A DNA stretch of 64,000 nucleotides from an uncultured virus (IMG/VR IMGVR_UViG_3300027963_000002) (taxonomy: Duplodnaviria; Heunggongvirae; Uroviricota; Caudoviricetes): the IMG/VR virus record IMGVR_UViG_3300027963_000002; one strand, 5' to 3'. Both the position numbers and the translations under genes were made by a program. This document shows positions 8,639 to 45,817 of this stretch, piece by piece; positions within the stretch are counted from its first letter, which is position 1, and every line of letters starts with the position of its first letter. The notes under the pieces were generated by a model that was given only the letters and a program-made list of their open reading frames with translations, ran no database searches and was not told the DNA's origin.

Positions 8639-11600
8639 ATGCCCTATTTGCGCTTACCTGATGGTTCGTACATGGAAGTCCCGGAAGGGGTGTCCCAAGG
8701 TGAAGCTTTAGCGCACGCTAGAGAAAAATACAAAGAATTATTTACGCCTGCAGTAAAACCAGATACGGGTCTTACAGGTGCCGCTAAAGCAGGTTACCAA
8801 ACACTTAAAGGCGATATAGCCGCCTTAGCCGGTAAAACCGGTTTAATGGATGTAGAAGAAGCTCAAAAGTATCAACAAGAACGCCAAGCAGAAGCCGCTC
8901 GTGTATTTAAACCAACTGAAGAAGGTTGGACAGAAGCTCCGTTTTTAAAAGCCCGTGAATTAATTGGTGGTTCTTTACCGTATATGGCAGCACCAGTTGC
9001 TGCTGGTCTTGGCGCATTAGCTTTACCTGCTACCGCTCCAGCCGCACTTGTTACGGGCACTGCTATGGGTTTAGCTGGCTTAGCGTCAGGCGCACAATTT
9101 ACTGGTTCAAATCTTTCCCGTCAAATGGAAGAGGGCAAACAGCTTAAAGATACAGATTTAGTTGCCGCTGGCGCTGCAGCAATTCCACAAGCCGCCCTAG
9201 ATGTTATTGGTTTCCGTTATATTCCCGGTATTCAAAGAATCTTTAAGTCGGCAGGTAAAGAAATATCCGAACAAGCTGCTAAAAAAATGCTAGATCAAGG
9301 CATTATGAAAACTGCAGGGCAGTACATTGCTGGCGGCGCTAAGATTAGCGGTATTGAAGGTGCTACAGAAGCTGGGCAACAAGTTTTTGAACGTTTACAA
9401 GCTGGGTTAAATATTGCTGATAAGCAAGCCCGTGATGAGTATTTTGATAGCTTTATTGGTGGCGCTGCTTTAGGTGCTATTGCCTCACCATTTGGTGTTC
9501 GTGGTCAACGTGGTCAAGCCAAAGAAGTAGTAGCCAAAGCAGAAGCAAAACGTGCAGACGAACTTGCCGCAGAGCAAGCCAATAAAAAAGAACAAACTAA
9601 ACTACAAAAAGAACAACAAGCTACCGGCAATTTGTTTGGAGAAGCCGCCCCTACAGCTAAAGAAGTAAGCCCCTTACCCGGAGCAGCAAGCACATTAACT
9701 GTACGGGAACGTGAGGCTGAAGCTGGTAATTTAAAAGAAACCCAGCAAACAGAGCGTAGTCAGTTATTAAAAGAATCAGATTTGTATGCTAAACAAATAG
9801 CAGACATTGAAAAACAACGTGATGCTGCCGCTGAAAAAGGCGATATTAAAACATTTGGTGCGTTAGACGCTCAAGCTAGATCTTTAGAAGCTGCTACCAA
9901 CACTATTAATAGCAAGTTAAAAGAACTACCGGTTAATTTGTCGCCAGAAATGGAAATGGCTAAACTTCGTGGTGAGCAAAAGAACTTAGTTAAACAGCTA
10001 CAAGGCATGACTGGCCCTTCATACGACTCCAAAAAAGCCGCAACAATAACTGAAAAACTTAGCAAAATAGAAACACAACTTGCGGAAGTTGCTCCCGGTG
10101 CTGCACAACTGGATATGTTTGATCCAGCTAAAATGCAAGCCGAAGCACGGGAAACAAGTGAACAACAAAAAGAAGCTCGCGCTCAAGAACAAACAGATTT
10201 GTTTGCTCAAGTACAAGGCAAAGGTAGAAAAGAAGTTCTTGATGCCGCAGCTATTGAAAGGTATCAAAAAGGTTTAGTTGATTTAGAAGAAGCCTACGCA
10301 TCTGGCGCAGATGAGCGCATTGTTAACAAGTTAATTGATGAATTACAAAAAGCAGGTAAAGAAAAAGATCAAGCTGTTGCTAAAGCAGGGGCTAAAACTG
10401 GGGCAGAACAAGAACAAGGCATTGCTAAACTTGAGCGTATTAAGCGTTCTATTAATGAAGAAGCAGCTAAGTTAGCCGGAGCCACAACTGATGAAGAAGT
10501 AAATGCCATTCGCACTAATATTGCAGCTTTACAAACTCGTTATGGAGCTGCACAAACCGAAAGAGCTACTGCAAACCCAGAAATTGTAGAGTCTGAAGCC
10601 AACCAAGAACAAAAAGATGCTGTATTAACTGCTGTAGAAGGCGCTCGTTCTATTTTATCTGGTGATTATTTAAATAGTAAGAACGTAGATGTAGCCTCAT
10701 CTTTAAAATCAGGCATTGAAACTGACATACGTGACGCAGGCGCTGCTTATATTAGAGCCGCTATTAAAGAAATTAATGCAGTACGGGCTATTAACAAACA
10801 ACAGCCTTTAACTAATGACGAAGCCCTTAAAGCCGCCCAAGCTATTAAGTCTCGTTTTGATTACATTGCAAAAGACCCTACGTATTTAGCTAACAGAGAA
10901 ATTGAAATATCTCGCCTTAAAAAACAACTTGCTAATACTCCTAAAGCTGACACCAAACGTATTACCCGTCTTGAAACCGCAATTAGTGGCTTAGAAAAAG
11001 ATCGCAATAAAAACCTTACAGTGTTTAAAGATGCTTTAGAAAAAATAAAGGTATCTAACTTTAAAGGCCCAACTAAGTTACAAAGAACAACCCCAACGCT
11101 TAAACAAGAACGTGACCCATTAGCTATGATGCGTAAAGAAATGGCAAAAACTGAGCCAGATCCAAAACGCATTGCCCAAATACAAAAAGAAATTGATGCT
11201 GGTAAAGCAGAAGATGCTCGTATTGAAGCAGAAAAAGCTAAACAAGAACAAGTTGAATTGCCGGGTGTTAACCCAGACCAACGTAGTTTGTTTGCTGAAA
11301 AAGAAGTACCTGCCTTGGCAACCGTACGCGCAACACCCGCAAACTTTATGCGGTTTGTTAACGCTCAAGCCGGTAAATTTAAAGTAGCAAAAGAAGCCGC
11401 TGAACGCGCTTTAAAAATACCAATGCAAAAAATTAAACAATTGCTTGGCAAAACATACGCTTTACATTTTGCAGAATTAGAAAAAACACGTTTAGAATTA
11501 GAAAATGTACGTGCAAAACAAATTCCAGAAATATACGTACCTACTGAAAATGCTTTAAAAAGTTACACAAAGTTGTTTATAGATGATCGGGTTAAAAGGT

Positions 11601-14600
11601 CTATTAAAATAAAAGAAGCACATTTAGCCAAAATTAAAGAACTTGAAAACCGAGAAAAAAACATATTAAAAGTTATTCGTGGGGTAGAAATAGACACGCT
11701 TCCTGATACTTTATCTTCACAAGTTGAACAACAAAAACAATTTATTAATGACGTTGTAAAAGCTGATGAAATAGCCAGTAATTTGCGATTTAATGCCGAG
11801 CAATTGTGGACTGCTAAAACTAAAATACAAAGAGCTTTAGCAAATGCAACAAAAAAAGAAGCGCTTATTTATGAACAAGCACTAAAACAACTTGAAGAAC
11901 AAGCTCCAGAAATAACAAAAGCAATAGATTCTTTTCATGCTAGGGCTAATGAACTTTTAAACGCTAACATAAATGTAGAAAAAGCAATACTACGTGGACT
12001 AGAAAAAAAACTAGCTGCATCGACAAAAGGTAGCCCTGCACAAATAGAAAATAGTAAACGGGCAGAAAAAATAAGAACGCAAATAGGACTTGAAGAAGTT
12101 TCTTTACGTCAACAACAAGAAAAACAAATTAAAGAAAAACGTGTAGCAGAAGAAAAACAAGCGGCTAGTTTAAAAGAAATGCCATCTACTGTTCGTGAAA
12201 CAGTTGAAACGCTTAAGAAAGTTAAAGGCAAAGCTGGAGAAGCTATTCGCCGTGAAAAAATTACACGCCGCGAAGTTCCACTTACCGCAAAAGAAAAACG
12301 TGCCAAAGTAATAGAAAACGCTAAGGCTGGCGCAGCAGAACGTAAAGCAGATAAAGAAGCTATTGCCGCACGTCTTGGTACAAATCAAATTGTTGAATCT
12401 AAAGAGCTTACCGCTGTATTAGACCGTCAAGCTGGTCGTGGTATTGAACGTATTGCTGCTCAGCCCGTTCGTACTGAACGTAAAAAGCTTTTAAAAACAG
12501 GTGTTAAAAAAGTTAATGTAACTGCGCAAGGACTTAAAGCTGCCCGTGATGTAGAGCAAGAAGCTCGTGATGCTGGTATTAGTCGTGAAGATTTTGAATT
12601 TGTTGAGCGTGGTTTAATGTTTGGGTTTAAAGCGCGTAGTGAGCCAGCTATTACCGGAACAGGTCTTACACAAGACGCAACGCAAGCTGTTGTTGACAAA
12701 GTCAAATTGCCAAAAGGTTTAAAAATAACTGTACTAAGTAAACTTACGCCTTCTTTACAAGCTGCCATTAAAAACAATGGGTATGATCCTGCCACTGTTA
12801 AAGGTGGTGTATTGCCTGACGGCTCGGTATTTATTGTGGCTGAAAACCATGCAGATGCTAAAGATGTACAACGCACAATAGCCCACGAAGTTACAGGTCA
12901 CCTTGGAGTAGAAAGTTTAATCGGCGAAGCTGGTATGGATGCGTTAGCAAAACGTGTTGCTAAGCAAGAGGGTGGTATATTAGGCTTGGCAGAAAAGCTG
13001 GGCGTTCAAGAAGAAGCCCTTGGCGCATACATGTCTGCTAAACAATCAGGTAAATCTGATGAGTTTGCTGCAGCTAAAGCTTTGCGTGAAGTTATAGCCC
13101 ATACTGAAGAAGCTCGTGTTGATAAGAATTTTTTAGGTAAAGCTAATGAGTTTATTAAAGCTTTAGTGGGTTCTATAAGAGCTGCTTTAAGAAAAATGGG
13201 ATTGGATTTAGATTTAAATACCAGCGACGTATACAAAATGTTGCGGGATGCGCGTAAAGAATTTGATACTGTAGCGCCCGGAATGTACAAAGGACGTGAT
13301 GGGGAAATTCAAGTTAGATCTGGTGGCGCTAAGTATGGCCCCGGTGGTGTAGTAGTTGCAGATGCCGCCGATAAGATTCTTACCCAAAAGCAAAAACAAA
13401 AGATTATGCCAGCTAACTTTGGCTTGTTGTTTGAACAAAGGGTTGTATCGGCTACGGCAGGATTAATGCGTGCTTTTGAAAACAAAGGCATGAAAAATTC
13501 AGTAGAAGCTTTACAGACTAAATACTATATAGCTAACCATAACCAGCGTTTTGTTTGGGCTTCTCATGCTCTTACTAATGGCGTACCAGTTCTTGAACCT
13601 GTTAAGCGTTCCGATGGCAAAACAGAATATGTATTAAAACAATCTAAAGGTGCTAGTGTCCAAGGTATTATTGATGCCTTAAGTAAAGCTAAATGGGGTA
13701 ATGCGCAGGGTGTTAATAACGTATGGAGCCTGCATAGAATTTTACTTCGTGCCAAATCTGTTGGGTTTGATAAATTAAATTTTGATAAAGCAGATGTAAC
13801 TGAAAAGCTTTTACAGGCTAATGAAGCTGTTATTAACTCAAACCCATCTTTAAAAGCCGCTATTAAAGAAGCTGACGACATATATAACCAATACAACCGT
13901 GATTTGTTAACCCGCTTTTTAGTTAGCACGGGCGCAATGAGTAAAGAATTGGCAAATAACCTTGTTAAAGGTGACGCATACATACCATATTATAGAAAAG
14001 AAACTGACGGTACTATTGTTCTTGATTTAAATGAAGGCGTTAAAAATATTCGCATTGGCAATATTAAAGACCAACCTTACTTAAAAGAACTTGTTGGTGG
14101 TAATGAACGCATTGTAGATGCTTTTACAGGTATATTGCAAAATACTAACTTGCTAATGGATATGGGTTTACGTAATTTAGCTACTCGTCAAACAGCCTTT
14201 GCGTTAGACTCTATGGGGTTACTTGAAAAAGGCAAAGATAAAGAGGGCATTGAAAAGCGCACTGGTATACGCAAAGGCCATGATATAGCTAGTGATAAAG
14301 CTATTAGGTTTTACTTAAATGGGGATCCAGTATACGCAGTAGTTGACACAGAAACTGTTGGTGTTCCGTCTGAATTAGTTGTTGAAGGTCTTGGCGGTGT
14401 AAGTACTAGCGTGCCAACTATTGTAAAAATGATGGGAATTCCAGCAAGTATTTTGCGCACATTTATTACCCGCAATCCTGTATATGCTTTGCGTCAGGCA
14501 GCTCGTGATCCTTTAAATGCTGTTATGACAAACGGTATTGAATTAAAAGCTATGGGTAACTCCTATAAGATTTTAGGTAAAGCATTAAGAGGAGATAAAG

Positions 14601-15949
14601 AAGCTACTAGCGATGTATTTAAGTATGGCATTACGGGCAGTAACGTATATACCGGAACTGTTGAAGACATGCAAAAACAAATGATGCGCATGCTTGATGG
14701 TAAAAATGGCATAGATAAGTTCTATGCTAAGCTAGATACGCTTGCGGTTAATGCAGACTCTGCTACTCGCCAAGCAGCTTTTACTAATTTCCGTAAGCAA
14801 GGTATGACGGAAATGGAAGCTATGCTAGCTACATATGAATTAATGCCATTTACCCAGCGTGGTACTTCGGCTAGTGTGTTTTGGCTTTCTACAATGGTGC
14901 CATTCTTAAATGCGCAAATACAAGGTCTAAACGTTTTATATAAAGCCATGTCAGGTAAAGCTACGTTCCAAGAAAAGCTAAAAGTTAAACAACAGTTTTA
15001 TGCTAAGGGCGCTATGATGTTTGGTATGTCAATTGCTTATGCGTTAATGATGAGTGATGATGAAGCTTACCAAAATGCTAACGATGATGAAAAATACAAC
15101 AACTGGTTTGTATACACACCATTTTCTAAAGAACCTTTTAAAGTACCAATTCCATTTGAATTAGGTATTTTGTTTAAAGCTATTCCAGAAGCTATGGTTA
15201 ACGTAGCTAAAGGTGATAGAGAAGCTAGCGAAGCGTTTAATGCAATCCGTAAACTTATTCAAAGTAATTCGCCAATTGGTTTAAGTTCTCTACCGCAAGC
15301 CGTTAAACCACTTATTGAAATTACTGCAGACTATTCGTTCTACACAGGGCGCAGTATTATTGGCGGAAGATTAAAAGGCGTTGACCCTAGCGAACGCTAT
15401 AACGCCAACACTAACGAAATTCTTAAACTTATTGGTAAAGGAACAGGTTCTATTCCTGTTTTAGGTGAGTACTTGTCACCTGTTCAACTTGAGTATTTAG
15501 TTCGTGGCTATCTTGGTAGTTTGCCATTAGCTTTGGCTTCTATTACAAATCCTGCTTTTAGTACTGGAGAAGAACCCGAAGGTCGTGGTTTAATAAGTAG
15601 TACAGCGCCAGTTATCGGATCTCTTTTCCAACCGCTTGATGCGGGCGGTATGATTAATCGTGCTTACAAAGATATGGAACGTATTCAGCGTACTCAAGCA
15701 ACATACAACAAATTAGTTGAAGATGGTAATCAAAAAGCCGCTGATAATTTATTAGATACTAGAGCAGACGAATTAAATTTAGCTCCGCTTGCTGGAAGTT
15801 TCCGTAAACGTATGGGCCAATTAGCTAAAGAAGAACGAGAAATTAAAGCGGATCCAACTTTATCAGGGCCAGAAAAACGTAAACAATTGGATGAACTTCG
15901 CCAAGATAGAATTGCTTACGCCAAAGATTTTATTAGCGAACTCGAGTAA
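8639..15949 (+). CDS. Large polyvalent (ejected) protein with zincin-like HExxxH motif and C-terminal LPD38-like domain
   Basis: 2436 aa; IAHEVTGH; VPFLNAQIQGL..EKYNNW..PIPFELG. Confidence 0.7.
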   Translation: MPYLRLPDGSYMEVPEGVSQGEALAHAREKYKELFTPAVKPDTGLTGAAKAGYQTLKGDIAALAGKTGLMDVEEAQKYQQERQAEAARVFKPTEEGWTEAPFLKARELIGGSLPYMAAPVAAGLGALALPATAPAALVTGTAMGLAGLASGAQFTGSNLSRQMEEGKQLKDTDLVAAGAAAIPQAALDVIGFRYIPGIQRIFKSAGKEISEQAAKKMLDQGIMKTAGQYIAGGAKISGIEGATEAGQQVFERLQAGLNIADKQARDEYFDSFIGGAALGAIASPFGVRGQRGQAKEVVAKAEAKRADELAAEQANKKEQTKLQKEQQATGNLFGEAAPTAKEVSPLPGAASTLTVREREAEAGNLKETQQTERSQLLKESDLYAKQIADIEKQRDAAAEKGDIKTFGALDAQARSLEAATNTINSKLKELPVNLSPEMEMAKLRGEQKNLVKQLQGMTGPSYDSKKAATITEKLSKIETQLAEVAPGAAQLDMFDPAKMQAEARETSEQQKEARAQEQTDLFAQVQGKGRKEVLDAAAIERYQKGLVDLEEAYASGADERIVNKLIDELQKAGKEKDQAVAKAGAKTGAEQEQGIAKLERIKRSINEEAAKLAGATTDEEVNAIRTNIAALQTRYGAAQTERATANPEIVESEANQEQKDAVLTAVEGARSILSGDYLNSKNVDVASSLKSGIETDIRDAGAAYIRAAIKEINAVRAINKQQPLTNDEALKAAQAIKSRFDYIAKDPTYLANREIEISRLKKQLANTPKADTKRITRLETAISGLEKDRNKNLTVFKDALEKIKVSNFKGPTKLQRTTPTLKQERDPLAMMRKEMAKTEPDPKRIAQIQKEIDAGKAEDARIEAEKAKQEQVELPGVNPDQRSLFAEKEVPALATVRATPANFMRFVNAQAGKFKVAKEAAERALKIPMQKIKQLLGKTYALHFAELEKTRLELENVRAKQIPEIYVPTENALKSYTKLFIDDRVKRSIKIKEAHLAKIKELENREKNILKVIRGVEIDTLPDTLSSQVEQQKQFINDVVKADEIASNLRFNAEQLWTAKTKIQRALANATKKEALIYEQALKQLEEQAPEITKAIDSFHARANELLNANINVEKAILRGLEKKLAASTKGSPAQIENSKRAEKIRTQIGLEEVSLRQQQEKQIKEKRVAEEKQAASLKEMPSTVRETVETLKKVKGKAGEAIRREKITRREVPLTAKEKRAKVIENAKAGAAERKADKEAIAARLGTNQIVESKELTAVLDRQAGRGIERIAAQPVRTERKKLLKTGVKKVNVTAQGLKAARDVEQEARDAGISREDFEFVERGLMFGFKARSEPAITGTGLTQDATQAVVDKVKLPKGLKITVLSKLTPSLQAAIKNNGYDPATVKGGVLPDGSVFIVAENHADAKDVQRTIAHEVTGHLGVESLIGEAGMDALAKRVAKQEGGILGLAEKLGVQEEALGAYMSAKQSGKSDEFAAAKALREVIAHTEEARVDKNFLGKANEFIKALVGSIRAALRKMGLDLDLNTSDVYKMLRDARKEFDTVAPGMYKGRDGEIQVRSGGAKYGPGGVVVADAADKILTQKQKQKIMPANFGLLFEQRVVSATAGLMRAFENKGMKNSVEALQTKYYIANHNQRFVWASHALTNGVPVLEPVKRSDGKTEYVLKQSKGASVQGIIDALSKAKWGNAQGVNNVWSLHRILLRAKSVGFDKLNFDKADVTEKLLQANEAVINSNPSLKAAIKEADDIYNQYNRDLLTRFLVSTGAMSKELANNLVKGDAYIPYYRKETDGTIVLDLNEGVKNIRIGNIKDQPYLKELVGGNERIVDAFTGILQNTNLLMDMGLRNLATRQTAFALDSMGLLEKGKDKEGIEKRTGIRKGHDIASDKAIRFYLNGDPVYAVVDTETVGVPSELVVEGLGGVSTSVPTIVKMMGIPASILRTFITRNPVYALRQAARDPLNAVMTNGIELKAMGNSYKILGKALRGDKEATSDVFKYGITGSNVYTGTVEDMQKQMMRMLDGKNGIDKFYAKLDTLAVNADSATRQAAFTNFRKQGMTEMEAMLATYELMPFTQRGTSASVFWLSTMVPFLNAQIQGLNVLYKAMSGKATFQEKLKVKQQFYAKGAMMFGMSIAYALMMSDDEAYQNANDDEKYNNWFVYTPFSKEPFKVPIPFELGILFKAIPEAMVNVAKGDREASEAFNAIRKLIQSNSPIGLSSLPQAVKPLIEITADYSFYTGRSIIGGRLKGVDPSERYNANTNEILKLIGKGTGSIPVLGEYLSPVQLEYLVRGYLGSLPLALASITNPAFSTGEEPEGRGLISSTAPVIGSLFQPLDAGGMINRAYKDMERIQRTQATYNKLVEDGNQKAADNLLDTRADELNLAPLAGSFRKRMGQLAKEEREIKADPTLSGPEKRKQLDELRQDRIAYAKDFISELE

Positions 15950-20905: not shown

Positions 20906-20934
20906 ATTATACATCTAAACCGACAGGTTTACAA
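20906..20934 (-). promoter_or_regulatory. Sigma70-like promoter
   Basis: TTGTAA-17nt-TATAAT on - strand upstream of AAGGAG RBS. Confidence 0.7.
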
Positions 20935-24048: not shown

Positions 24049-26021
24049 TTTGCTTCTCCGTATCGTTTGTGTGCGTCTGCTTCTGCATCTAGGGGTATAC
24101 CCTGCATATACTGTGGATCTTTAATCATCTGCTCTAGAACCCATTGTGTAGCTTCGACGGCTTCATCTTCAGGAACTAGTACTACAACCTCGTCGTGCAC
24201 GGTTAATACACAGGAATACCTCTTTTGTATTCTCAGCATACCGTCCGTCATAACGCATCTTGCTACCGCCTGTACTACGTTTTCTACTATCTTACCACCA
24301 TACAAACGCTTACTATCGTCGCCATAAAGCCACTGGATTCGTCCTTTTTCATCGGATTCGCCTCTCAGTCTTGGGTACTTTAATGCCAACCCACTAGGTA
24401 ATATTATAGCTTCTTTTGTAAATGTCAAGCATTTGTGCGTGTACTCCTTGCCGTTGACTAAGCTATGGATTATTAGGCCACTGCACTTATTCCATAACTC
24501 AACTACTGGATTAGCCGCTTCCCTATACTTATCAATAATCTTCTTTGCCGCCATGCAATGAATTAGTAGTTCTTTATCAGAACAAGTGTGAGGTATGCTG
24601 GTCATCAATTCTACGTTGCGATTCCAACCAAGGAAGTCATTAACGTCTTGTGCATTTACACCAAGCTGTTTAGCAAAAGCCTTATCGTATAGCGTAGGTG
24701 GCGCACCAAGGAAACCAGTTAGTAACTGAGCCGCAAAGCTAGCCCAACCCATACCATAGCCACAACCTAATAGCGCTGACTTAGCTGACTGACGTAGCTC
24801 AGGGTGGGATTCTTTTGTTAGGTATGTAATGCCGAACATCGACGCTCCAAAAGCCGCATACGCATCTTGCCCCGCTCTGAAAATGGAAAGGAGGGCTTTG
24901 TAGTCTGACAGATACGCGAGTACCCTTGGTTCAATCTGTGCAAGATCGCAGACAACGAGCGTGTAGCCATTCGGGGCGTGTATGCTTTTACGTAAGAACG
25001 ACCCTCGTTTGAGATTTTGTAAATTGAGCCCCGAACCCTTGGATGCCGACCAACGACCTGTGTGGGCTCCGTAATAATTGAGTGGGACAGGTAACGTACC
25101 TCGTTGCGATATATCAAGAAATCTTTGCGCTCTTGTGCGTTCCAGCGTAGATTTAACTTTGAGGCGTGCCTCGCAAATAAGGGCAATATCTTCGTTAGAA
25201 CTATTAAGCAACGCTTGGAAGAGTGCGTCATTTTTAGCGAATGCAAAAGCTTCTTTCCCAGTCGTCTTGCTAATTTTCTTCGGCGGTATAACGCCAAGTG
25301 TTTCAAGAACTCCAGCAAATTTATCGTTGCTAGCCAATGCCTTTTCTTCAATGCCAACCTTTTGAAGCACCGCCTCCCTCTTTGTGCGCTCATCGTCGAT
25401 CGCTTCACTTAACATTTCTCCGTCTAGTTCTAATACAGGGTTAGTAAACATCCTGAGCGTCATATCAATTAGCTTAAGTTCTTTTAATGGATAGCCGCCC
25501 TCAACCTCAAGCATAAGGTATTGAAATATACTTTCGCATAGCACAACGTCGTGTGCACAATACTCAGCAAGTTCTTGTTCTGTTTCATACGTTATGTGTT
25601 CTAGCCCGTTGGTACTATTAACTGCCTTACCTTTGGGTGGTAGCTTGTAGTCTTCTGCTAACTTCATTAAGCTGTTACCTACTTCTACACCACGTAATGC
25701 CCTAGCCATACTAAGGGAATCAAATATAAAACAAGGATTAGCTCCATACACCCAAGACAATATGGCAATATCAAACTGGGCATTATGCGCTAGCACCGCC
25801 GTCCGACTCCAATCAACTGAGCTAACCCAATTTGCTATATCGTCGCATGATACCCATACAGGCTCCATAGGTTGGTCAAGATACTTATAGCACAACCCAA
25901 ACGCTTTAAACCTAGGGTCACGGATATACTGCTCAGTTGTCATTTTTGATAGCGTGTACTCCTTGCTATCCCAACGTGTTTCAAAATCAATAACTACTAC
26001 GTCATCAAAAGGTACGCTCAA
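24045..26021 (-). CDS. polA: Family A DNA polymerase with 3'-5' exonuclease
   Basis: IDFET exo I; HTGRWS; DLAQIEPR motif A; KSALLGCGYG motif B; VHDEV motif C. Confidence 0.93.
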   Translation of the reverse strand: MSVPFDDVVVIDFETRWDSKEYTLSKMTTEQYIRDPRFKAFGLCYKYLDQPMEPVWVSCDDIANWVSSVDWSRTAVLAHNAQFDIAILSWVYGANPCFIFDSLSMARALRGVEVGNSLMKLAEDYKLPPKGKAVNSTNGLEHITYETEQELAEYCAHDVVLCESIFQYLMLEVEGGYPLKELKLIDMTLRMFTNPVLELDGEMLSEAIDDERTKREAVLQKVGIEEKALASNDKFAGVLETLGVIPPKKISKTTGKEAFAFAKNDALFQALLNSSNEDIALICEARLKVKSTLERTRAQRFLDISQRGTLPVPLNYYGAHTGRWSASKGSGLNLQNLKRGSFLRKSIHAPNGYTLVVCDLAQIEPRVLAYLSDYKALLSIFRAGQDAYAAFGASMFGITYLTKESHPELRQSAKSALLGCGYGMGWASFAAQLLTGFLGAPPTLYDKAFAKQLGVNAQDVNDFLGWNRNVELMTSIPHTCSDKELLIHCMAAKKIIDKYREAANPVVELWNKCSGLIIHSLVNGKEYTHKCLTFTKEAIILPSGLALKYPRLRGESDEKGRIQWLYGDDSKRLYGGKIVENVVQAVARCVMTDGMLRIQKRYSCVLTVHDEVVVLVPEDEAVEATQWVLEQMIKDPQYMQGIPLDAEADAHKRYGEAK

Positions 26022-33403: not shown

Positions 33404-33416
33404 TTGTTTCTTTCGT

Positions 33417-34601
33417 TTAGTTTGAGTAAATGCGAACTACTTTGCCTTCGCTTGGCACAAAGTGGTCGTTATCAACAACGCCCCACAATGTAGGAAAACC
33501 CGTATTGGCATTAGATCCGTCTAGATAACCATCGGTTAACCAAACAACACCTTTCGGGGTATATTTCTTTTCAGTAATGTATTGCACAACACACTCAGGG
33601 CTAGTGCCACCACCACCTGATGGTTTGAGTAACTCGGCAATACGACCAAATTCATGTGGCTTGAAATACTGCTCGCCACATACTGCTGAATCCCACCAGA
33701 TCACTCTCACGCCGTCTGGTTTAACGCTCTCGGCTATGCGTGCAATCTCGCCAAATAGCGTGCCATATATGCCACTCATTGAACCTGATGTATCGGCATT
33801 AATGATTAGCTCGCCAGTAGCTTCGCTGAAATGCGATGGCATAAGAATACCAAGGGGTAATAAACGTTTGTTTGGCGGGGCAAATCTTGAATACTCATCA
33901 CCATCACATAGCGCTGTAATCCAATCACGCATATGTTCACGCCACGCTGTATCACGCTTCTGTGTAACACGATCAATAGCACCACCTTGGGAAATCTTGC
34001 CAGCTAACTTATCAGCCAGTATCTTTCCTTGACGTAATGCATCATCGCATTGACGTTGGTGTTCTTTGATCTCGCCATCACCTTTAACTTCACCAACCTT
34101 ATGCTCATCTAATGGTTGACCTTCCCCATCTATGCTGATGACTGAAGTATTATTAAGAAGATCCCTAAAGACCTCGATGAATGACCAGCCCCGATACTTG
34201 GCATCTATCAAAGGCTTGGGGTTAGTAGTCCACTCAACAAAGGACTGAGTGGGATCGATCTCATCTATCGTGCCGTTAACTACATAGTCCATAGCAATGT
34301 TAGTGAGTAGTGGGTATTGCTCGCATAACTTAGGGTAAAGAATGCAATGTTGTAATGCCTTATGCAATGACTCATGCGCTACTACAAAGCGTAACTGCTT
34401 ACGGGTAAGCCCCATAGTAAAGTCTTCGCCATACCATACATCACGACCATTAGTGCCAGCAGTAGGTATGTTTTTGTCGATCTTGACTGAACCGATATAA
34501 GTAAAGCCTGACAACTGAGCAAAGTCTTTGTTCTGACTTATGTCCACATGAACTGCTATAACACGATCGCTTGCTTGTAACTTATCCCATGATTTACTCA
34601 T
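33417..34601 (-). CDS. Metallopeptidase + vWA domain protein (DUF2201-like)
   Basis: TAGTNG, AHESLH (HExxH), DTSGSM MIDAS, GGGGT, LTDGY. Confidence 0.8.
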   Translation of the reverse strand: MSKSWDKLQASDRVIAVHVDISQNKDFAQLSGFTYIGSVKIDKNIPTAGTNGRDVWYGEDFTMGLTRKQLRFVVAHESLHKALQHCILYPKLCEQYPLLTNIAMDYVVNGTIDEIDPTQSFVEWTTNPKPLIDAKYRGWSFIEVFRDLLNNTSVISIDGEGQPLDEHKVGEVKGDGEIKEHQRQCDDALRQGKILADKLAGKISQGGAIDRVTQKRDTAWREHMRDWITALCDGDEYSRFAPPNKRLLPLGILMPSHFSEATGELIINADTSGSMSGIYGTLFGEIARIAESVKPDGVRVIWWDSAVCGEQYFKPHEFGRIAELLKPSGGGGTSPECVVQYITEKKYTPKGVVWLTDGYLDGSNANTGFPTLWGVVDNDHFVPSEGKVVRIYSN

Positions 34602-36179: not shown

Positions 36180-36275
36180 GATTTTCTTTCGTTTGTTTAT
36201 GATTTATAGATACGATGATAACATAGATTATACAATCCACTACTACTTCTACTACTATTTTGATTGGGGTTTACC

Positions 36276-38971: not shown

Positions 38972-38991
38972 GGTAAATCCTTTCGTTTGAT

Positions 38992-40494
38992 TTAGATTGC
39001 GGTTTCGATTGGTTGTGATGGTGCATCACTATTACGAGGGTTGTCCTTCATTACTGCTGGCTTGGGTAGCGAATAGCCTTTCTCTTTTAGGTATGTGCGT
39101 AGATACTTGGTATCCTTGCGTTGATTGGGCTGGCATATGAACTCGATAAACTTGGCGCTAGTCAGCTCGCTTACCCCTGTATCACGACAGAAGAACCATG
39201 TTGCGTATGTAAACTCAAGACAAGCCATGATTGTTTCGTAGCGTAGCGTGCCTTTGAATAGCCTGAACTCTATGGTGTTAGGGTTCTGAAAGTTAAGTGC
39301 CTCAGTCCTATCGTCATTCAGTCTATTGAGTGGGTTGTCGTAACCCCTTGCATCTTTGAGCCATTGATAGCTTGCTTTCTTATTACCTATCTTGGCATAG
39401 TAGTGATTGCTACGGCGTGCTATGTCCCTGATAAGTTTCTGATTGTTACTGTCGTTGATAAAGAACACCATCTTGCACGCATGGAATAGGCTTACATCTT
39501 TCTTATCTATATGCACATGAAGTCCACAAGTCTTAGTGTCATGGCTACGCACACCACGCCAAGGTGTCTTAAAGAACTTGAGCATATCAGCATGAACATC
39601 TAGCCCTGTATACCCTGTGACTATCTCGAAGCCATGACTTAACGAGCCGTCGTCTTCAATGAATATGTATTGGTGGTCAGGCGTAGCCCACTTGATCTCG
39701 TCATACAATTCTTCTGCCTTATCAGCCCGACTATGATCACTACCTATCTCAACCTCTAACTCCATACCCATTAGAACGCTAGGCTTGCGGTTGTCAAACG
39801 CTGAGGGTATATGACCTAGCACATTCTTATTGTCATGCCTGTCACCAATGATGCCCCCTCTGTTATCTTCCTCTCGTTCTTCTTCCTCTTGTTCCTCGTC
39901 ATAGTCATCTTGCGTTATGTAGGTATCCCGATTGTCTGAATACACATAGCTATCATCAAGGCATGACGAGCACACCCAATAGTCATCATATGCAGTCGAG
40001 CCATTGTCATCATAGTCAACAGTATTACAGTCGTTGCATTGGCATACGCTGTTGATGTTGAACTTATCGTTGAGTAACTCAGCCCAGTCACCACTACCCT
40101 TTTCACGCACATGGCGGTATGTAGAGTCTTGTAATGCCTCAAGCACAGGGTCACAATCATCATCTTTAATGGCTTGTGCAAACAAGTCACCAAACAATTT
40201 AAACTCTCGCTTGTGTTTAACCCTAAGCATGGCTTGTGTGTATAGGCGGTGATTCCTATGCGGTGAACTGATGTTGATCTCCATTGTGTGCTTACACGCA
40301 AGCATTACTTCGGCAACAGACCATATCTGAGGGCTGTTTATGTGGCGGTTCATCATGTCCGCATACTCACCTAGTAGTGGCGGGCAATGAATGGTGGGGC
40401 TATGTATTGTTTGTTGTATCTTCCGCACAAACAACAGGCGTGGGTCGATAGCTGGTAAGGGTGGTGCTGGTATTGCTGTTAGCTGATTAGGCAT
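38992..40494 (-). CDS. Putative amidoligase (COOH-NH2 ligase fold) with N-terminal Cys motifs
   Basis: GMELEVE, DDGSL..GFEIVT, CGLHVH, ALNF..TIEFRLFKGTL. Confidence 0.8.
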   Translation of the reverse strand: MPNQLTAIPAPPLPAIDPRLLFVRKIQQTIHSPTIHCPPLLGEYADMMNRHINSPQIWSVAEVMLACKHTMEINISSPHRNHRLYTQAMLRVKHKREFKLFGDLFAQAIKDDDCDPVLEALQDSTYRHVREKGSGDWAELLNDKFNINSVCQCNDCNTVDYDDNGSTAYDDYWVCSSCLDDSYVYSDNRDTYITQDDYDEEQEEEEREEDNRGGIIGDRHDNKNVLGHIPSAFDNRKPSVLMGMELEVEIGSDHSRADKAEELYDEIKWATPDHQYIFIEDDGSLSHGFEIVTGYTGLDVHADMLKFFKTPWRGVRSHDTKTCGLHVHIDKKDVSLFHACKMVFFINDSNNQKLIRDIARRSNHYYAKIGNKKASYQWLKDARGYDNPLNRLNDDRTEALNFQNPNTIEFRLFKGTLRYETIMACLEFTYATWFFCRDTGVSELTSAKFIEFICQPNQRKDTKYLRTYLKEKGYSLPKPAVMKDNPRNSDAPSQPIETAI

Positions 40495-40546
40495 GGTTGA
40501 TTACTCCTTTGTTTTGGTTGGTAATGTGTTGCTGTAATGCGTTTAG

Positions 40547-41932: not shown

Positions 41933-42175
41933 CTACTGATGTATTGCGTATTTGTCTGCATTGAGTAGCCCTTTCTCTATCAGGTAGTTGAATGTAGATG
42001 CCTTGGTAATGATGGTGCGTGATGGGTCACGCTTGAATGTCTTAACCCAAAACTTGCTGGCACTAGCCCCGTTCTTAAACCAATGAGATGCCACACCTGT
42101 ATTGCGGTCAATGATAAATGCACCACCACCACCAATGCGGGCTATGGGCTTGGATACTAAGGTAGATACTTTCAT
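41933..42175 (-). CDS. Hypothetical early protein
   Basis: 80 aa; GAGAGTAATCAAATG RBS. Confidence 0.6.
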   Translation of the reverse strand: MKVSTLVSKPIARIGGGGAFIIDRNTGVASHWFKNGASASKFWVKTFKRDPSRTIITKASTFNYLIEKGLLNADKYAIHQ

Positions 42176-42200
42176 TTGATTACTCTCTTTCTTGGTTAGG

Positions 42201-42353
42201 TTAATACTTACTGCGGTTGTATTCAGTCACGCTGAATTGTTTGAACGCCTGACCCATTGACTGTGTAATAGGTTGTGGCTTGGGTGTTGTCTTGATTACA
42301 GGTGCTACTGTTTGCGCCAGCTTGAGCAAAGCGCATTGTTGATTGGATAGCAT
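42201..42353 (-). CDS. Hypothetical early protein (50 aa, not in ORF track)
   Basis: MLSNQQCALLKLAQ..; AAAGGAATTAACC RBS. Confidence 0.5.
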   Translation of the reverse strand: MLSNQQCALLKLAQTVAPVIKTTPKPQPITQSMGQAFKQFSVTEYNRSKY

Positions 42354-42355
42354 GG

Positions 42356-42520
42356 TTAATTCCTTTCTGTGCGGAAATCTCTTTCCTTCATTAGCTCATC
42401 AATCAATGCTTCGAGCAGGTAGTCGTTTACTTCGTTTAGTTTGTGCTGATGGATAAGGCGTTCAGCTCTTTGGGTTGCTATTGATACTAGCGTTTTACCG
42501 CATGGTTTTGCCGCTTGCAT
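42356..42520 (-). CDS. Hypothetical early protein (54 aa, not in ORF track)
   Basis: MQAAKPCGKTL..; AAGGAGTAATC-ATG. Confidence 0.55.
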   Translation of the reverse strand: MQAAKPCGKTLVSIATQRAERLIHQHKLNEVNDYLLEALIDELMKERDFRTERN

Positions 42521-42529
42521 GATTACTCC

Positions 42530-42646
42530 TTAACGTATTTGTAAGAGATAACGACCATCACGTTTGGTGATGCCGCAACGGATACCAGCAGACTTCAAGC
42601 TGGCTAAGAACTCGGTTACTTCTTTCTTTGTATTGAAATAAATCAT
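42530..42646 (-). CDS. Hypothetical early protein (38 aa, not in ORF track)
   Basis: MIYFNTKKEVTEFL..; AAGGAGTAATC-ATG. Confidence 0.55.
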   Translation of the reverse strand: MIYFNTKKEVTEFLASLKSAGIRCGITKRDGRYLLQIR

Positions 42647-42748
42647 GATTACTCCTTGGTTAGTGGTGATAGGTTTGACAGAATATGGAATAGCTGAGCA
42701 TTGTCTTGCTTGCCCTGTTTATCTATACGCTGTCAAACTTGTTGTGGA

Positions 42749-43162
42749 CTACTTGGCAAATGCAATCTCAACTGCTTTTAATACCTGAGCCTTGGTCATA
42801 CCCCATGCCTTGATTGCCTTGGACTTGCGGGTAATAGGGTCAACCTGTTTGCTAACTTGTTTGGTAGAAGTTCTACCATTCTTCTTCTTTGTAACAAGTG
42901 GGAAGTAATAGACATACATTGACCTTGCGGCGTTACCTGCCTTGGTCTTTCTATCGAACCCGACTGTGCCTCGGTTAGTGATGATAGGCTTAACCTTATA
43001 CTCAACACCGATTAGCTTAGCCACTTCCATTTGGTATTGGACTTGCACATCAGGCTTAGCTTTGTCGTATACGGGCTTGATAGCATCAAGGGCTTGGCGT
43101 AATGTCTTGCCAGCTTTGATGTGAGTAGTGATTGCAACAAGCAACTGTTTTAATTCGTTCAT
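42749..43162 (-). CDS. First early gene, basic hypothetical protein
   Basis: 137 aa; AGGAGAATCAAATG RBS. Confidence 0.65.
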   Translation of the reverse strand: MNELKQLLVAITTHIKAGKTLRQALDAIKPVYDKAKPDVQVQYQMEVAKLIGVEYKVKPIITNRGTVGFDRKTKAGNAARSMYVYYFPLVTKKKNGRTSTKQVSKQVDPITRKSKAIKAWGMTKAQVLKAVEIAFAK

Positions 43163-43177
43163 TTGATTCTCCTAAAT

Positions 43178-43201
43178 AAAAAGCCGAGCAAGTGGCTCGG
43201 C
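43178..43201 (-). terminator. Intrinsic terminator-like hairpin in early leader
   Basis: GCCGAGC-CACTT-GCTCGGC-TTTTT on - strand. Confidence 0.55.
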
Positions 43202-43234
43202 ATCACATCAACTAATTCCTTAATCGATACCTCT

Positions 43235-43243
43235 ATTATAACA
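43235..43243 (-). promoter_or_regulatory. Extended -10 early promoter
   Basis: TGTTATAAT on - strand. Confidence 0.6.
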
Positions 43244-43397
43244 TAGTAGGTTTGGGAGAACTGTGCTTTGGGCTAGGTTAGACCCCACTAGGGGGGCATG
43301 AACCCTTATGTTGACGAGGTAGGCTTGGTCACCCGATCACTATTCCTTAACCACAATTTTAAAAAATGTCAAAATTTGTAAAAAATAAAGGGGAGTA

Positions 43398-43413
43398 TGT
43401 CTAATCTTAGACA
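43398..43413. promoter_or_regulatory. Palindromic operator-like site
   Basis: TGTCTAA-TC-TTAGACA in the divergent intergenic region. Confidence 0.4.
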
Positions 43414-43420
43414 CAAGGGT

Positions 43421-43509
43421 GGGGCGTAGATTTGGTAGTTAGTACACGCTAAGCAGAAAGCCGCAAAATTCTTAGCTACTACATCCTCTAATGGCGGCTT
43501 AACCGCCCC
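43421..43509. ncRNA. Candidate pseudoknotted structured RNA
   Basis: GGGGCG/CGCCCC closing stem, GCTAAG/CTTAGC hairpin, loop AAGCCGC complementary to GCGGCTT. Confidence 0.5.
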
Positions 43510-43510
43510 T

Positions 43511-43538
43511 AAAAAAACCCCGGCACGGAGCCGGGGGT
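43511..43538 (-). terminator. Intrinsic terminator
   Basis: CCCCGGC-TCCGT-GCCGGGG-TTTTTTT on - strand. Confidence 0.8.
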
Positions 43539-43607
43539 AAAGTCACCGAGCTAATCAGACTCATGTGAAGGAGTACGTAACCAACAAACGAAGGAAAAGT
43601 GGCACGT
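43511..43607 (-). ncRNA. Candidate trans-acting anti-RBS small RNA
   Basis: -10 TATACT (43614-43619), CU-rich body, intrinsic terminator; complementary to early-gene RBS motifs. Confidence 0.55.
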
Positions 43608-43692
43608 AAAAAAAGTATACACCAAAAAATAAATACATATATAATCCAAACAATATCGTGTGTTTCCTACGCCCTTAAGGAGAAGTTGCAGT

Positions 43693-44292
43693 TTGTTTTT
43701 AGACCACCTCATCTCACCCGCCTTAGCGGATTTTATTCCGGAACTTACCAGCTCCGACGCTTCGTTTGTCTCTCTTGATACTCTTACCCCCGCACAAACC
43801 CTAAGTGCCCAAAAGAAAACCAGCGACTGGATACAAAGCTTTTCAGAAGAAGACGAAGAAATCCTGACCCATGCGCAGGAAGAGAAAGTGGCAAACATAT
43901 TTAATGCCCTAACGCTACGAGACCCTGACGCAAAAGACAAGTTACTTCAAATGGAAGTACCCGAAGAAGTGCAAAGCGCCATAAACATGGTAACTGCATA
44001 CCAATGGAAGTTTGTTGAGCAAGCAGAAAACTTAAGAAGCCTAGCAGTTACCAAAATTGTTAAAGATACCAGCCATCCAGATGCCAGAATACGTCTTAAA
44101 GCCTTAGAGTTGCTGGGTAAAGTCACAGAAGTAGCCCTGTTTACGGACAGAGTAGAGGTTAAACGCCAAGAAATGAGCGATGAAGAGCTAGAAAAGCGCA
44201 TTAAAGAGAAACTTGGGCGCTATATGGGGGCAGTAGACGTGGTAGATGTGGTTGAAAAGATAAGAATAGTAAAGAAAACTGATGAATCTTGA
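43693..44292 (+). CDS. terS: Probable terminase small subunit
   Basis: Directly upstream of TerL; RLKALELLGK..ALFTDR; TTG start after AAGGAG. Confidence 0.6.
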   Translation: MFLDHLISPALADFIPELTSSDASFVSLDTLTPAQTLSAQKKTSDWIQSFSEEDEEILTHAQEEKVANIFNALTLRDPDAKDKLLQMEVPEEVQSAINMVTAYQWKFVEQAENLRSLAVTKIVKDTSHPDARIRLKALELLGKVTEVALFTDRVEVKRQEMSDEELEKRIKEKLGRYMGAVDVVDVVEKIRIVKKTDES

Positions 44293-45817
44293 TTTTTTAA
44301 CACCACAAGAAGCTCTAGCTGCGCAATTAGCGTTAAAAGACATGAACCGTTTTGAGAAGTTGGCGTTTTTGGACGACTTGAACGAACAAGAAAATAGGTT
44401 TTCTTTAAAAGCGGCACAAAGCGACCCTATATCTTTTGCAAAACAGGTATATCCGGGATTTAAAGTAGGCCCACAACACAGAAAACTGGCTAAAATATTT
44501 CAAGACGTGATTGACGGTAAGAAAAAGCGCGTGATCATCAACATAGCCCCTCGTATGGGTAAGTCAGAGTTCAGTTCTTACTTGTTTCCGGCGTACTTCT
44601 TGGGTAAATACCCAGATAAAAAGATTATTATGGCAACCCACACGGCTGGATTGTCCGAAGATTTTGGTAGAAGAGTAAGGAATCTAATTGAAAGCGATGA
44701 ATATAAAGAAGTTTTTCCCAACACGGTTGTCGCAGATGATCAAAAAGCTGCTGGGAAGTGGAGTACTGGGGCTGGTGGACAATACTACGCTGTTGGTGTT
44801 GGCGGTGCTCTTGCTGGACGTGGTGCTGATTTATTTGTTATTGATGACCCTCATTCCGAACAAGATATAAAGGTTAATAGCCGGGCGGCGTTTGATAATG
44901 CTTGGTCTTGGTTTCAAACGGGGCCACTACAAAGGCTTATGCCGGGCGGTGCGATTATTGTGATTATGACTCGGTGGTCTTTGATAGACTTAACTGGGCG
45001 GTTAATTGACTACAACATTAAGAACCCGGACAGCGTTCCTTGGGAACTAGTAGAACTGCCAGCCATCCTAGACGCTGGTACAGATCATGAAAAAAGCCTT
45101 TGGCCTGCGCAATGGCCCTTAGAATTACTGCAAGCAACAAGACAACAGCTTGACCCACGGTATTGGAACGCCCAGTACATGCAGAACCCCACGTCAGACA
45201 TGGCGGCTTTAATCTCAAGAAAAGACTGGCAAATATGGGATAAAGAAGACCCACCTAAATGTGAGTATGTTATCCAGTCTTGGGATACGGCACACGAAAC
45301 AAAGACTACATCGGACTATTCCGCATGTACAACATGGGGCGTTTGGTATAACAATGAGGATAAAAACAACCCCAACTTGATTCTATTGGACGCTTTTAAA
45401 GATAGGCTTACGTTTCCAGAACTAAAGATAGCAGCGTTAAAGCATTACAAAGAATGGAAACCAGATGCCTTTATAGTTGAGAAAAAAGCAGCCGGTGCTC
45501 CGTTAATCCAAGAGCTAAGAATGATTGGCATTCCGGTACAAGAATTCACCCCATCAAGGGGTAACGATAAAATGGTTAGACTAAATGCCGTGGCAGATTT
45601 GTTTACATCTGGTAAAGTATGGGCTCCAGATACGCGTTGGGCAAAAGAAGTAATTGAAGAAATTGCATCGTTTCCTGTCGGCGAACACGATGACTTTGTG
45701 GACACCTGCACCCAAGCGCTTCTGCGTTACAGACAAGGCGGGTTTATTAGTTTAGATTCAGATGAGAAAGATGACGATATGCAGTATCGCTATCGTCGTA
45801 AAGCGGCGTACTACTAG
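44282..45817 (+). CDS. terL: Terminase large subunit
   Basis: APRMGKS Walker A, VIDDP Walker B, MTRW, SWDTA nuclease, HDDFVD. Confidence 0.95.
   Translation: MNLDFLTPQEALAAQLALKDMNRFEKLAFLDDLNEQENRFSLKAAQSDPISFAKQVYPGFKVGPQHRKLAKIFQDVIDGKKKRVIINIAPRMGKSEFSSYLFPAYFLGKYPDKKIIMATHTAGLSEDFGRRVRNLIESDEYKEVFPNTVVADDQKAAGKWSTGAGGQYYAVGVGGALAGRGADLFVIDDPHSEQDIKVNSRAAFDNAWSWFQTGPLQRLMPGGAIIVIMTRWSLIDLTGRLIDYNIKNPDSVPWELVELPAILDAGTDHEKSLWPAQWPLELLQATRQQLDPRYWNAQYMQNPTSDMAALISRKDWQIWDKEDPPKCEYVIQSWDTAHETKTTSDYSACTTWGVWYNNEDKNNPNLILLDAFKDRLTFPELKIAALKHYKEWKPDAFIVEKKAAGAPLIQELRMIGIPVQEFTPSRGNDKMVRLNAVADLFTSGKVWAPDTRWAKEVIEEIASFPVGEHDDFVDTCTQALLRYRQGGFISLDSDEKDDDMQYRYRRKAAYY

Follow-up and report, generated by a model that had tools for sequence, protein, structure and literature searches.

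To our knowledge, regulatory RNAs have rarely been described from phages other than prophages, and comparative support is available for almost none of them. In bacteria, the LhrC RNAs of Listeria, the 6C RNAs of Actinobacteria and RNAs of the RNAIII type have an intrinsic terminator and hairpin loops carrying an anti-Shine-Dalgarno (anti-SD) sequence, and their targets are the ribosome-binding sites of several mRNAs. The phage antisense RNA C4 uses short sequences exposed in loops against a ribosome-binding region. In the sections of the source drawn on here, C4, from the immI region of phages P1 and P7, is described as required for full repression of ant, as made from the operon that it controls and as having one target region (PMC8198154). 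In phage T4, the part of the literature that concerns us describes two proteins, RegA, which competes with ribosomes at about 30 start regions, and RegB, which cuts GGAG in the translation initiation regions of early genes (PMC3014915). Finally, the account of the virulent Pseudomonas phage PAK_P3, where it deals with sRNA1 and sRNA2, presents them as abundant intergenic transcripts of ~100 nt with a proposed trans action through 11-nt matches (PMC4933390). The open-access literature that we searched for phage small RNAs (sRNAs) with anti-SD loops yielded no description of the RNA considered below.

In this report, we examine an sRNA locus proposed in a preliminary description of the genome of an uncultured freshwater phage; the whole stretch of DNA analyzed, ~64 kb, is referred to as the window. 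Our main finding is that, judging from comparative sequence analysis, the locus is very probably a real small-RNA gene of a freshwater phage clade, and represents a family that was uncatalogued before. The family itself is solid, and the targets and timing considered below are proposals.

The window has a minus-strand early/replication arm (16111-43162) that encodes DNA polymerase A, a primase/helicase, an SNF2 helicase, an AAA ATPase, an amidoligase, a GATase-like protein and many small ORFs, and a plus-strand arm that begins with terS (start near 43687-43693), followed by terL (44282) and the portal gene (45826). Elsewhere, positions 8639-15949 encode a 2436-aa protein with an LPD38 domain at its C-terminus (E 3.8e-30), probably a large polyvalent protein that is part of the virion or is injected. 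Nucleotide comparison with 50,697 deposited phages revealed no DNA-level relative, and the closest TerL proteins from cultured phages, namely pelagiphages HTVC027P and HTVC023P, lake phage DSL-LC04 and Synechococcus/Planktothrix phages, show 46-52% identity. The DNA sequencing runs that contain the stretch are labelled freshwater, lake or sediment metagenome. Relatives were taken from IMG/VR: out of 383 candidate stretches, 380 code for a relative of TerL, and the 80 best of these, with 79-100% identity, are designated L001-L080.

The features of the locus, which lies between the early/replication arm and terS, are collected in Table 1 together with the ranked target sites discussed below. The elements announced in the preliminary description, that is, a minus-strand TATACT, a body of ~95 nt free of convincing ORFs, a terminator stem followed by U7, and a plus-strand TATAAT back-to-back with the sRNA promoter, were all recovered. 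Only a 21-codon ATG frame without a Shine-Dalgarno (SD) sequence and TTG frames antisense to terS run through the body on the minus strand. The predicted fold of the body has a minimum free energy of -30 kcal/mol (z -3.09 against 200 shuffles). An Rfam scan of positions 42000-45000 at E up to 10 returned 10 matches, none of which reached its gathering score (the best, Hrs1, has 22.8 bits for a gathering score of 56.4), and a tRNA search of the window found none. Within its family, the 5' stem-loop (SL1) of the window stands apart, its stem being bulged and its anti-SD core weaker (UCCUU only); a covariance search at default filters missed it, and with filters off the best match of model R2 anywhere in the window was this copy (43581-43602, 18.7 bits, E 0.016).

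Table 1. Features of the sRNA locus, examples of the neighbouring gene in relatives, and start regions ranked for pairing with the sRNA among 88 in the window
Feature	Position	Strand	Remarks
-10 hexamer TATACT of the sRNA	43614..43619	-	G immediately 5', T-rich upstream, no clear -35
Predicted sRNA body, ~95-97 nt	43511..43607	-	5' end placed at ~43606-43607; 3' end within the U tract
5' stem-loop SL1	43575..43607	-	Predicted fold and covariance model R2 match; stem bulged in the window phage
SL1 loop (seed 1), UUUUCCUUCGUUUGUU	43583..43598	-	Family consensus UUUUCC(U)CCUUCGUUUGG
Seed 2, UACUCCUU	43568..43575	-	Single-stranded only at 43574-43569 in the predicted fold
Middle hairpin	43543..43568	-	Specific to the window phage and L001/L002; part variable in relatives
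Intrinsic terminator	43511..43536	-	Stem 43536-43518, 7 G-C pairs, 5-nt loop, U7 at 43517-43511
-10-like TATAAT before terS	43640..43645	+	From sequence; back-to-back with the sRNA promoter
42-aa gene in relatives (examples)	L061:3079-3207, L048:3031-3159, L025:3084-3212	+	Ends at the sRNA terminator
Leader of 95-aa ORF (GTG 24048)	24052..24077	-	Rank 1/88, -10.3 kcal/mol
AAA ATPase leader AACAAACGAAAGAAAA (gene start 36179)	36182..36197	-	Rank 2/88, -9.5 kcal/mol
Next best start region			Rank 3/88, -5.8 kcal/mol
Amidoligase			Rank 4/88, -5.7 kcal/mol, via seed 1, not seed 2
ORF 33403 leader	33407..33418	-	Rank 6/88, -5.0 kcal/mol
GATase-like gene leader	38978..38989	-	Rank 14/88, -3.9 kcal/mol
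ORF 42646			Rank 23/88, -2.4 kcal/mol
ORF 42520			Rank 32/88, -0.7 kcal/mol

A motif search of the terL-anchored loci, the best 80 of 380 TerL relatives, found the sRNA module in 64, with the terminator A run always 747-838 nt upstream of terL. Thirteen of the 16 remaining loci have less than 700 nt of upstream sequence, too short to contain the module; in L031 the module is there but its A run is interrupted, and the module of L026 and L055 is diverged, with C/U-rich stretches after a tight hairpin. There are 38 distinct versions of the sRNA, and exactly one copy per genome in the six genomes scanned (6/6). The same fold plan, consisting of SL1, a variable middle, and a G+C hairpin with a U run, was present in all 26 distinct sequences from relatives. 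Their SL1 loop is 12-20 nt long and follows the consensus given in Table 1 or reads UUUUACUUCUCCUUUCGUUGUG. A CCUU(U)CGUU core is shared by 24/24 seed variants, so that CGUU beside the core is invariant; the fuller CGUUUG(G) is present in 19/24. The variable middle usually has a second C/U-rich stretch, which is absent from the L025/L036/L048 type. At the position of the sRNA promoter, the minus-strand -10, sigma70-like in every copy, reads TATACT, TATAAT, TACTAT, TACAAT or TATTAT, keeping TAnnnT, and the plus-strand box at the position of the terS -10 is TGTATACT or TATATACT. The G+C stem of the terminator differs in sequence each time and is followed by a U run on the minus strand. Reading the relatives thus shows an architecture that is kept and a sequence that drifts; in a whole-region BLAST, intergenic conservation peaks at 43335-43424 and the sRNA stretch appears poorly conserved. 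Near the terL genes of DSL-LC04, HTVC027P and MinM2, a search with model R1 gave nothing credible (best 11.9 bits, E 0.25). In the phage of locus L054, a tRNA-like sequence (L054:3120-3196, plus strand) adjoins the sRNA terminator.

The stem of SL1 covaries. A covariance model built from nine equal-length SL1 sequences recovered 20 SL1 copies at E <0.001, and the alignment analyzed comprises 19 distinct rows and 8 pairs, that is, 152 cells. Pairing is observed in 98.0% of these cells, with compensatory changes on both sides in six of the eight pairs and double changes in 41 cells. None of 500 shuffles matched the double-change count or the covariation score, and sliding the partner by one to three columns reduced pairing to 25-47%. 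This alignment was fitted to the covariance model, which favours the structure somewhat; independent single-sequence folds agree with it. MAFFT followed by RNAalifold on full-length sRNAs was out of register and predicted just three terminator pairs, and MAFFT on SL1 alone was likewise out of register; the covariance-model alignment was therefore adopted.

What might such an RNA do? In the mechanism that we propose, the loop would combine an anti-SD core (CCUU or CUCCUU) with a CGUUUG extension and would pair with AAACGAA(A)GGAG-type ribosome-binding regions, used mainly on the early arm in this phage family; the 30S subunit would thereby be denied access, and the genes concerned would be translated less. 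From the complementarities described below, we lean slightly towards an sRNA that acts through pairing with ribosome-binding regions of phage messages. Its role as an early-to-late switch is speculative, and the type of promoter is uninformative on timing, as similar boxes also precede early-arm genes such as that of the ATPase (TGTATAAT). Two such boxes, of the same -10 type as the sRNA promoter, lie on the minus strand at 36227-36234, ~48 nt before the ATPase gene, and at 20906-20913, ~21 nt before gene 20885. An ATPase message starting from the former would have a short leader, consisting almost wholly of the proposed pairing site.

The phage family has a stereotyped ribosome-binding leader, (C/A)AACGAA(A)GGAG(UAAUACC)AUG, of which the SL1 loop is the mirror image. 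Over 16 related, hence non-independent, genomes, the motif ACGA(R)RG was found 3-25 nt before 46 of 489 starts on the early strand, which is that of the sRNA, versus 14 of 439 on the late strand (odds ratio 3.2, P 1.4e-4). In loci L009-L012 and L067, leaders of at least 20 nt that are almost the same, (C)AACCAACGAAGGAGUAAUACC-AUG, stand before many of the small early genes, and the window has its own version, AAGGAGUAAUC-AUG, before 42520, 42646 and 40494; such standardised leaders could double as recombination points for the exchange of gene cassettes. In genomes G002 and G003, both the SD (AAGGAGGAA) and the first codons (AUG CCAAACGAAGGAG, 13 nt) of one early gene match the sRNA loop (for example, plus strand 39812-39838 of G002), giving two adjacent sites for one loop. 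A bolder reading, which we hold only tentatively, is that the sRNA is a clade-wide RNA counterpart of T4 RegA/RegB: its loop would mirror the uniform leader, (C)AAACGAAGGAGUAAUACC-AUG, that precedes many small early genes, would silence the whole class at once, and would drift with the leader type of each lineage.

Within the window, the complementarities listed in the preliminary description are real. The complement of seed 1 matches the AAA ATPase leader at 15/16 positions and the ORF 33403 leader at 11/12, and it matches the GATase leader with one extra, bulged A; seed 2 is the exact complement of AAGGAGUA at 40502-40509, 42524-42531 and 42650-42657, before the amidoligase gene, ORF 42520 and ORF 42646, respectively. 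At up to two mismatches, the 16-mer finds itself and the ATPase leader, for 0.05 occurrences expected, and none of 100 shuffles reaches two. AAACGAAAG is present three times, always before early-arm start codons (0.75 expected; 2/100 shuffles reach three), and AAGGAGTA six times (2.1 expected; 2/100 shuffles reach six). The excess of seed complements over chance inside the window is modest.

Targets were ranked by a score that combines hybrid energy with the opening energies of both partners, which approximates IntaRNA but is not IntaRNA itself, over 88 start regions of the window. A cruder genome-wide duplex scan was uninformative, being swamped by G-rich coding regions through G-U pairing. 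Early-arm genes make up nine of the ten top-ranked start regions (hypergeometric P 0.023). The best-ranked site precedes a 95-aa ORF that sits within the end of the DNA polymerase gene; its orthologues average the 10th percentile (7 genomes), and the polymerase coding sequence that overlaps the site may account for its conservation. Orthologues of the ATPase leader average the 23rd percentile over 8 genomes, which is good, not outstanding. For the three AAGGAGUA leaders, the net energy of seed 2 is ~0; seed 2 is therefore treated as a generic anti-SD, as an earlier caveat about 8-nt seeds had foreseen, and was rejected as the basis of a second target family. The list of six targets named previously is partly supported, with the ATPase at rank 2, the amidoligase at 4, ORF 33403 at 6, the GATase at 14, ORF 42646 at 23 and ORF 42520 at 32, and these six particular targets are not established. 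The early-arm enrichment of the ranking notwithstanding, loops shuffled around a preserved core score about as well: 51, 98 and 121 of 200 shuffles that keep UCCUU are as good as the window loop in hybrid energy for the top-1, top-3 and top-5 values, respectively, and, with accessibility included, 12/60 match its best value and 5/60 its second best. In the window phage, the case for seed 1 rests mainly on the single 15/16 match to the ATPase. The best target candidates there would be the AAA ATPase leader and the leader of the 95-aa ORF, and the AAGGAGUA leaders appear to be weak candidates.

The loops of several relatives show long contiguous matches to leaders of their own early genes: L067 and L025 have 15 nt each, followed by L079 and L053 (14 nt each), L072 (13 nt) and L048 (12 nt); the match of L067 lies in the leader of the first early gene (140 aa). 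Here too, the control consisted of 200 loops in which the UCCUU core was kept and the remainder permuted. The real loop beats these shuffles in G001, G004, G006, G010 and G012, where 0-14 of 200 equal it when only the best energy counts and 0-4 of 200 when the top-3 and top-5 means are compared; it does less well in G005 and G008, has a marginal advantage in G002, G003 and G015, and has none in G011. When 12 genomes were crossed with 8 loop types, the own loop ranked first of eight in the four genomes with the L048 loop type and in G006, second to fourth in G002, G003, G005 and G015, sixth in the window and G008, and last (8/8) in G011. As the four L048-type genomes are related, these own-loop successes amount to two independent lineages. 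Covariation between seed and ribosome-binding site, which had been suggested as a check, was not found in its strict form: GAAAG and GAAGG leaders stand at 14:5 where the sRNA is of the GAAAGG type and at 14:7 where it is of the GAAGG type, so that the state of the leader does not track that of the sRNA, and leaders are mostly ACGAAAG whatever the sRNA reads.

This last result is what one would expect if the RNA were a generic anti-SD RNA, with a loop that copies the motif by which the ribosome docks on mRNA, and if it acted widely, be it on the messages of the host or on every strong SD, and not on defined early leaders. The same reading draws on the L054/L057-type loops, which contain CCUCCUU, on the core-preserving shuffles that score like the real loop in the window, and on the stronger anti-SD loops of other phages, which outscore the window's own loop on the window's start regions. 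Such an RNA would, however, have no use for the conserved CGUU, or for the CGUUUG(G) of most variants; moreover, leader matches of 12-15 nt beat the controls in two lineages, and the window loop, with only UCCUU, is a weak anti-SD. We regard a purely generic action as rather unlikely.

Other alternatives to pairing with early leaders concern the surroundings of the gene. In many relatives, a conserved plus-strand gene of ~42 aa (MYDFFKP.EL.KTYQQ.EKAIKDAY.FWLDV..DTIKMLKAK), which has a good ribosome-binding site, places its stop codon at the A run of the sRNA terminator; this gene is absent from the window. It is conceivable that the locus is a unit working at the level of DNA or transcription, with pairing secondary, either as a terminator-plus-promoter insulator that separates convergent from divergent units or as a cis-antisense to plus-strand read-through from the upstream small gene into terS. 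Convergence with the 42-aa gene, whose stop codon touches the terminator, and the position of the sRNA promoter, back-to-back with the terS -10, are in line with this. So is one RNA-library contig: two lake metatranscriptome runs contain small parts of the stretch, and a 151-nt contig, which is strandless, lacks ends and may reflect DNA carry-over, covers 43477-43591 and passes the terminator; another contig, with the same limits (strandless, without ends, DNA carry-over possible), lies inside terS. Still, a covarying stem bearing a fixed loop would be superfluous in an insulator, the window does without the 42-aa gene, and the plus-strand -10 is downstream of the sRNA gene, so that the terS transcripts from it do not overlap the sRNA. 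As a general explanation this is decidedly improbable; a cis-antisense role against plus-strand read-through may still apply in those phages that have the 42-aa gene.

The same neighbour bears on whether the RNA is a gene of its own. In phage lambda, a short transcript stops before the late genes unless it is antiterminated, and the sRNA could by analogy be the promoter-proximal, terminated leader of the early operon, with no independent regulatory role. This is conceivable in the window, where the sRNA lies upstream of the early arm, on the same strand, and where a second terminator-like hairpin (43201-43183) comes just before the first early gene. Yet ~350 nt with a conserved palindromic, operator-like site separate the sRNA from that gene, and in the many relatives with a convergent plus-strand gene directly downstream of the terminator the operon-leader reading is ruled out; overall we consider it extremely improbable. 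In those relatives, the sRNA stands alone on the minus strand between two plus-strand genes, and an independent gene is the simplest reading. The earlier proposal of an independent, structured, non-coding sRNA unit, whose exposed segments are anti-ribosome-binding-site sequences, is borne out by the conservation of its own promoter, covarying stem, loop and terminator, as well as by this convergent gene.

Several elements of the region between the sRNA terminator and the early arm deserve mention. The best-conserved part of the divergent intergenic region, 43367-43413, consists of TGTCAAAATTTGTAAAAAA followed by the palindrome TGTCTAATCTTAGACA (TGTCAA-n4-TTGACA in relatives), which from its sequence looks like an operator overlapping -35-like boxes of early promoters. 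Right after the sRNA terminator, 43425-43510 form a structured element of ~85 nt, whose ends, GGGGCG and CGCCCC, can pair and enclose a long inner hairpin. This element is shared by L030, with its orientation unchanged, and by L038, where it is inverted; it has no Rfam or tRNA match, and could be either a mobile hairpin element or another RNA. Other DNA contigs of one lake run contain parts of it (43423-43468) at ~60-fold depth. The second terminator-like hairpin (43183-43201, minus strand), GCCGAGC...GCUCGGC followed by a U run, stands only ~20 nt ahead of the first early gene's ribosome-binding site (gene start 43162) and may be an attenuator or a 5' stabilising hairpin.

Three features identify the minus strand as the RNA strand: the 32 G-U or U-G pairs among the 152 SL1 stem cells fit this strand only, and the orientation of the U run and the minus-strand -10 variants point the same way. 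A functional plus strand, on which a hairpin of the terS leader would display the SD-like loop CCAAACGAAGGAGG as a ribosome standby site or mRNA stabiliser, can claim that this loop is a strong SD and that plus-strand genes flank the unit in relatives, but it is hardly credible when those 32 cells become A-C mismatches, when the U run after the G+C hairpin and the TAnnnT of the -10 variants exist on the minus strand only, and when no start codon follows the motif in relatives. A plus-strand protein starting at GTG 43599 (a 59-aa frame preceded by an SD-like AAGGA) was considered and rejected, as L024, L030, L035, L054 and L074 have no start codon after the motif.

With its 38 distinct versions, covarying stem and fixed anti-ribosome-binding-site loop, this clearly bounded RNA family makes RNA-based control of translation during phage development open to experiment. 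Should the loop silence the genes with the standard leader, the phage would time a whole gene class without a protein repressor, and the loop would provide a compact, programmable repressor design.

How does this RNA compare with described systems? Like C4, which in the sections of the source considered here blocks phage gene expression by pairing within the message, it is a small RNA encoded by a phage; unlike C4 as presented there (PMC8198154), it has its own -10 and terminator, and its loop matches a leader type common to several genes. The operon origin of C4 is not shared either, as the sRNA lies between plus-strand genes in relatives, and the C4 covariance model gave no match in the Rfam scan of 42000-45000 at E up to 10. 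C4 is the closest phage precedent in concept, but on these sequence features the window sRNA is not a member of the C4 family. With RegA and RegB, as far as the part of PMC3014915 cited here describes them, the analogy is functional only, the agents being proteins in T4 and, as proposed, an RNA in our phages. The PAK_P3 RNAs, the best-known small RNAs of a virulent phage, are in the account of them used here known from RNA-seq, with no structural or covariation support given there (PMC4933390), whereas the window sRNA draws its support from comparative sequence analysis, and there is no sequence relation between them. Finally, the sRNA has in common with LhrC, 6C and RNAIII-type RNAs an intrinsic terminator and an anti-SD hairpin loop; those RNAs are host-encoded, with C-rich UCCC loops, whereas the RNA described here is encoded by a phage, and its loop is U-rich and carries a fixed CGUUUG extension.
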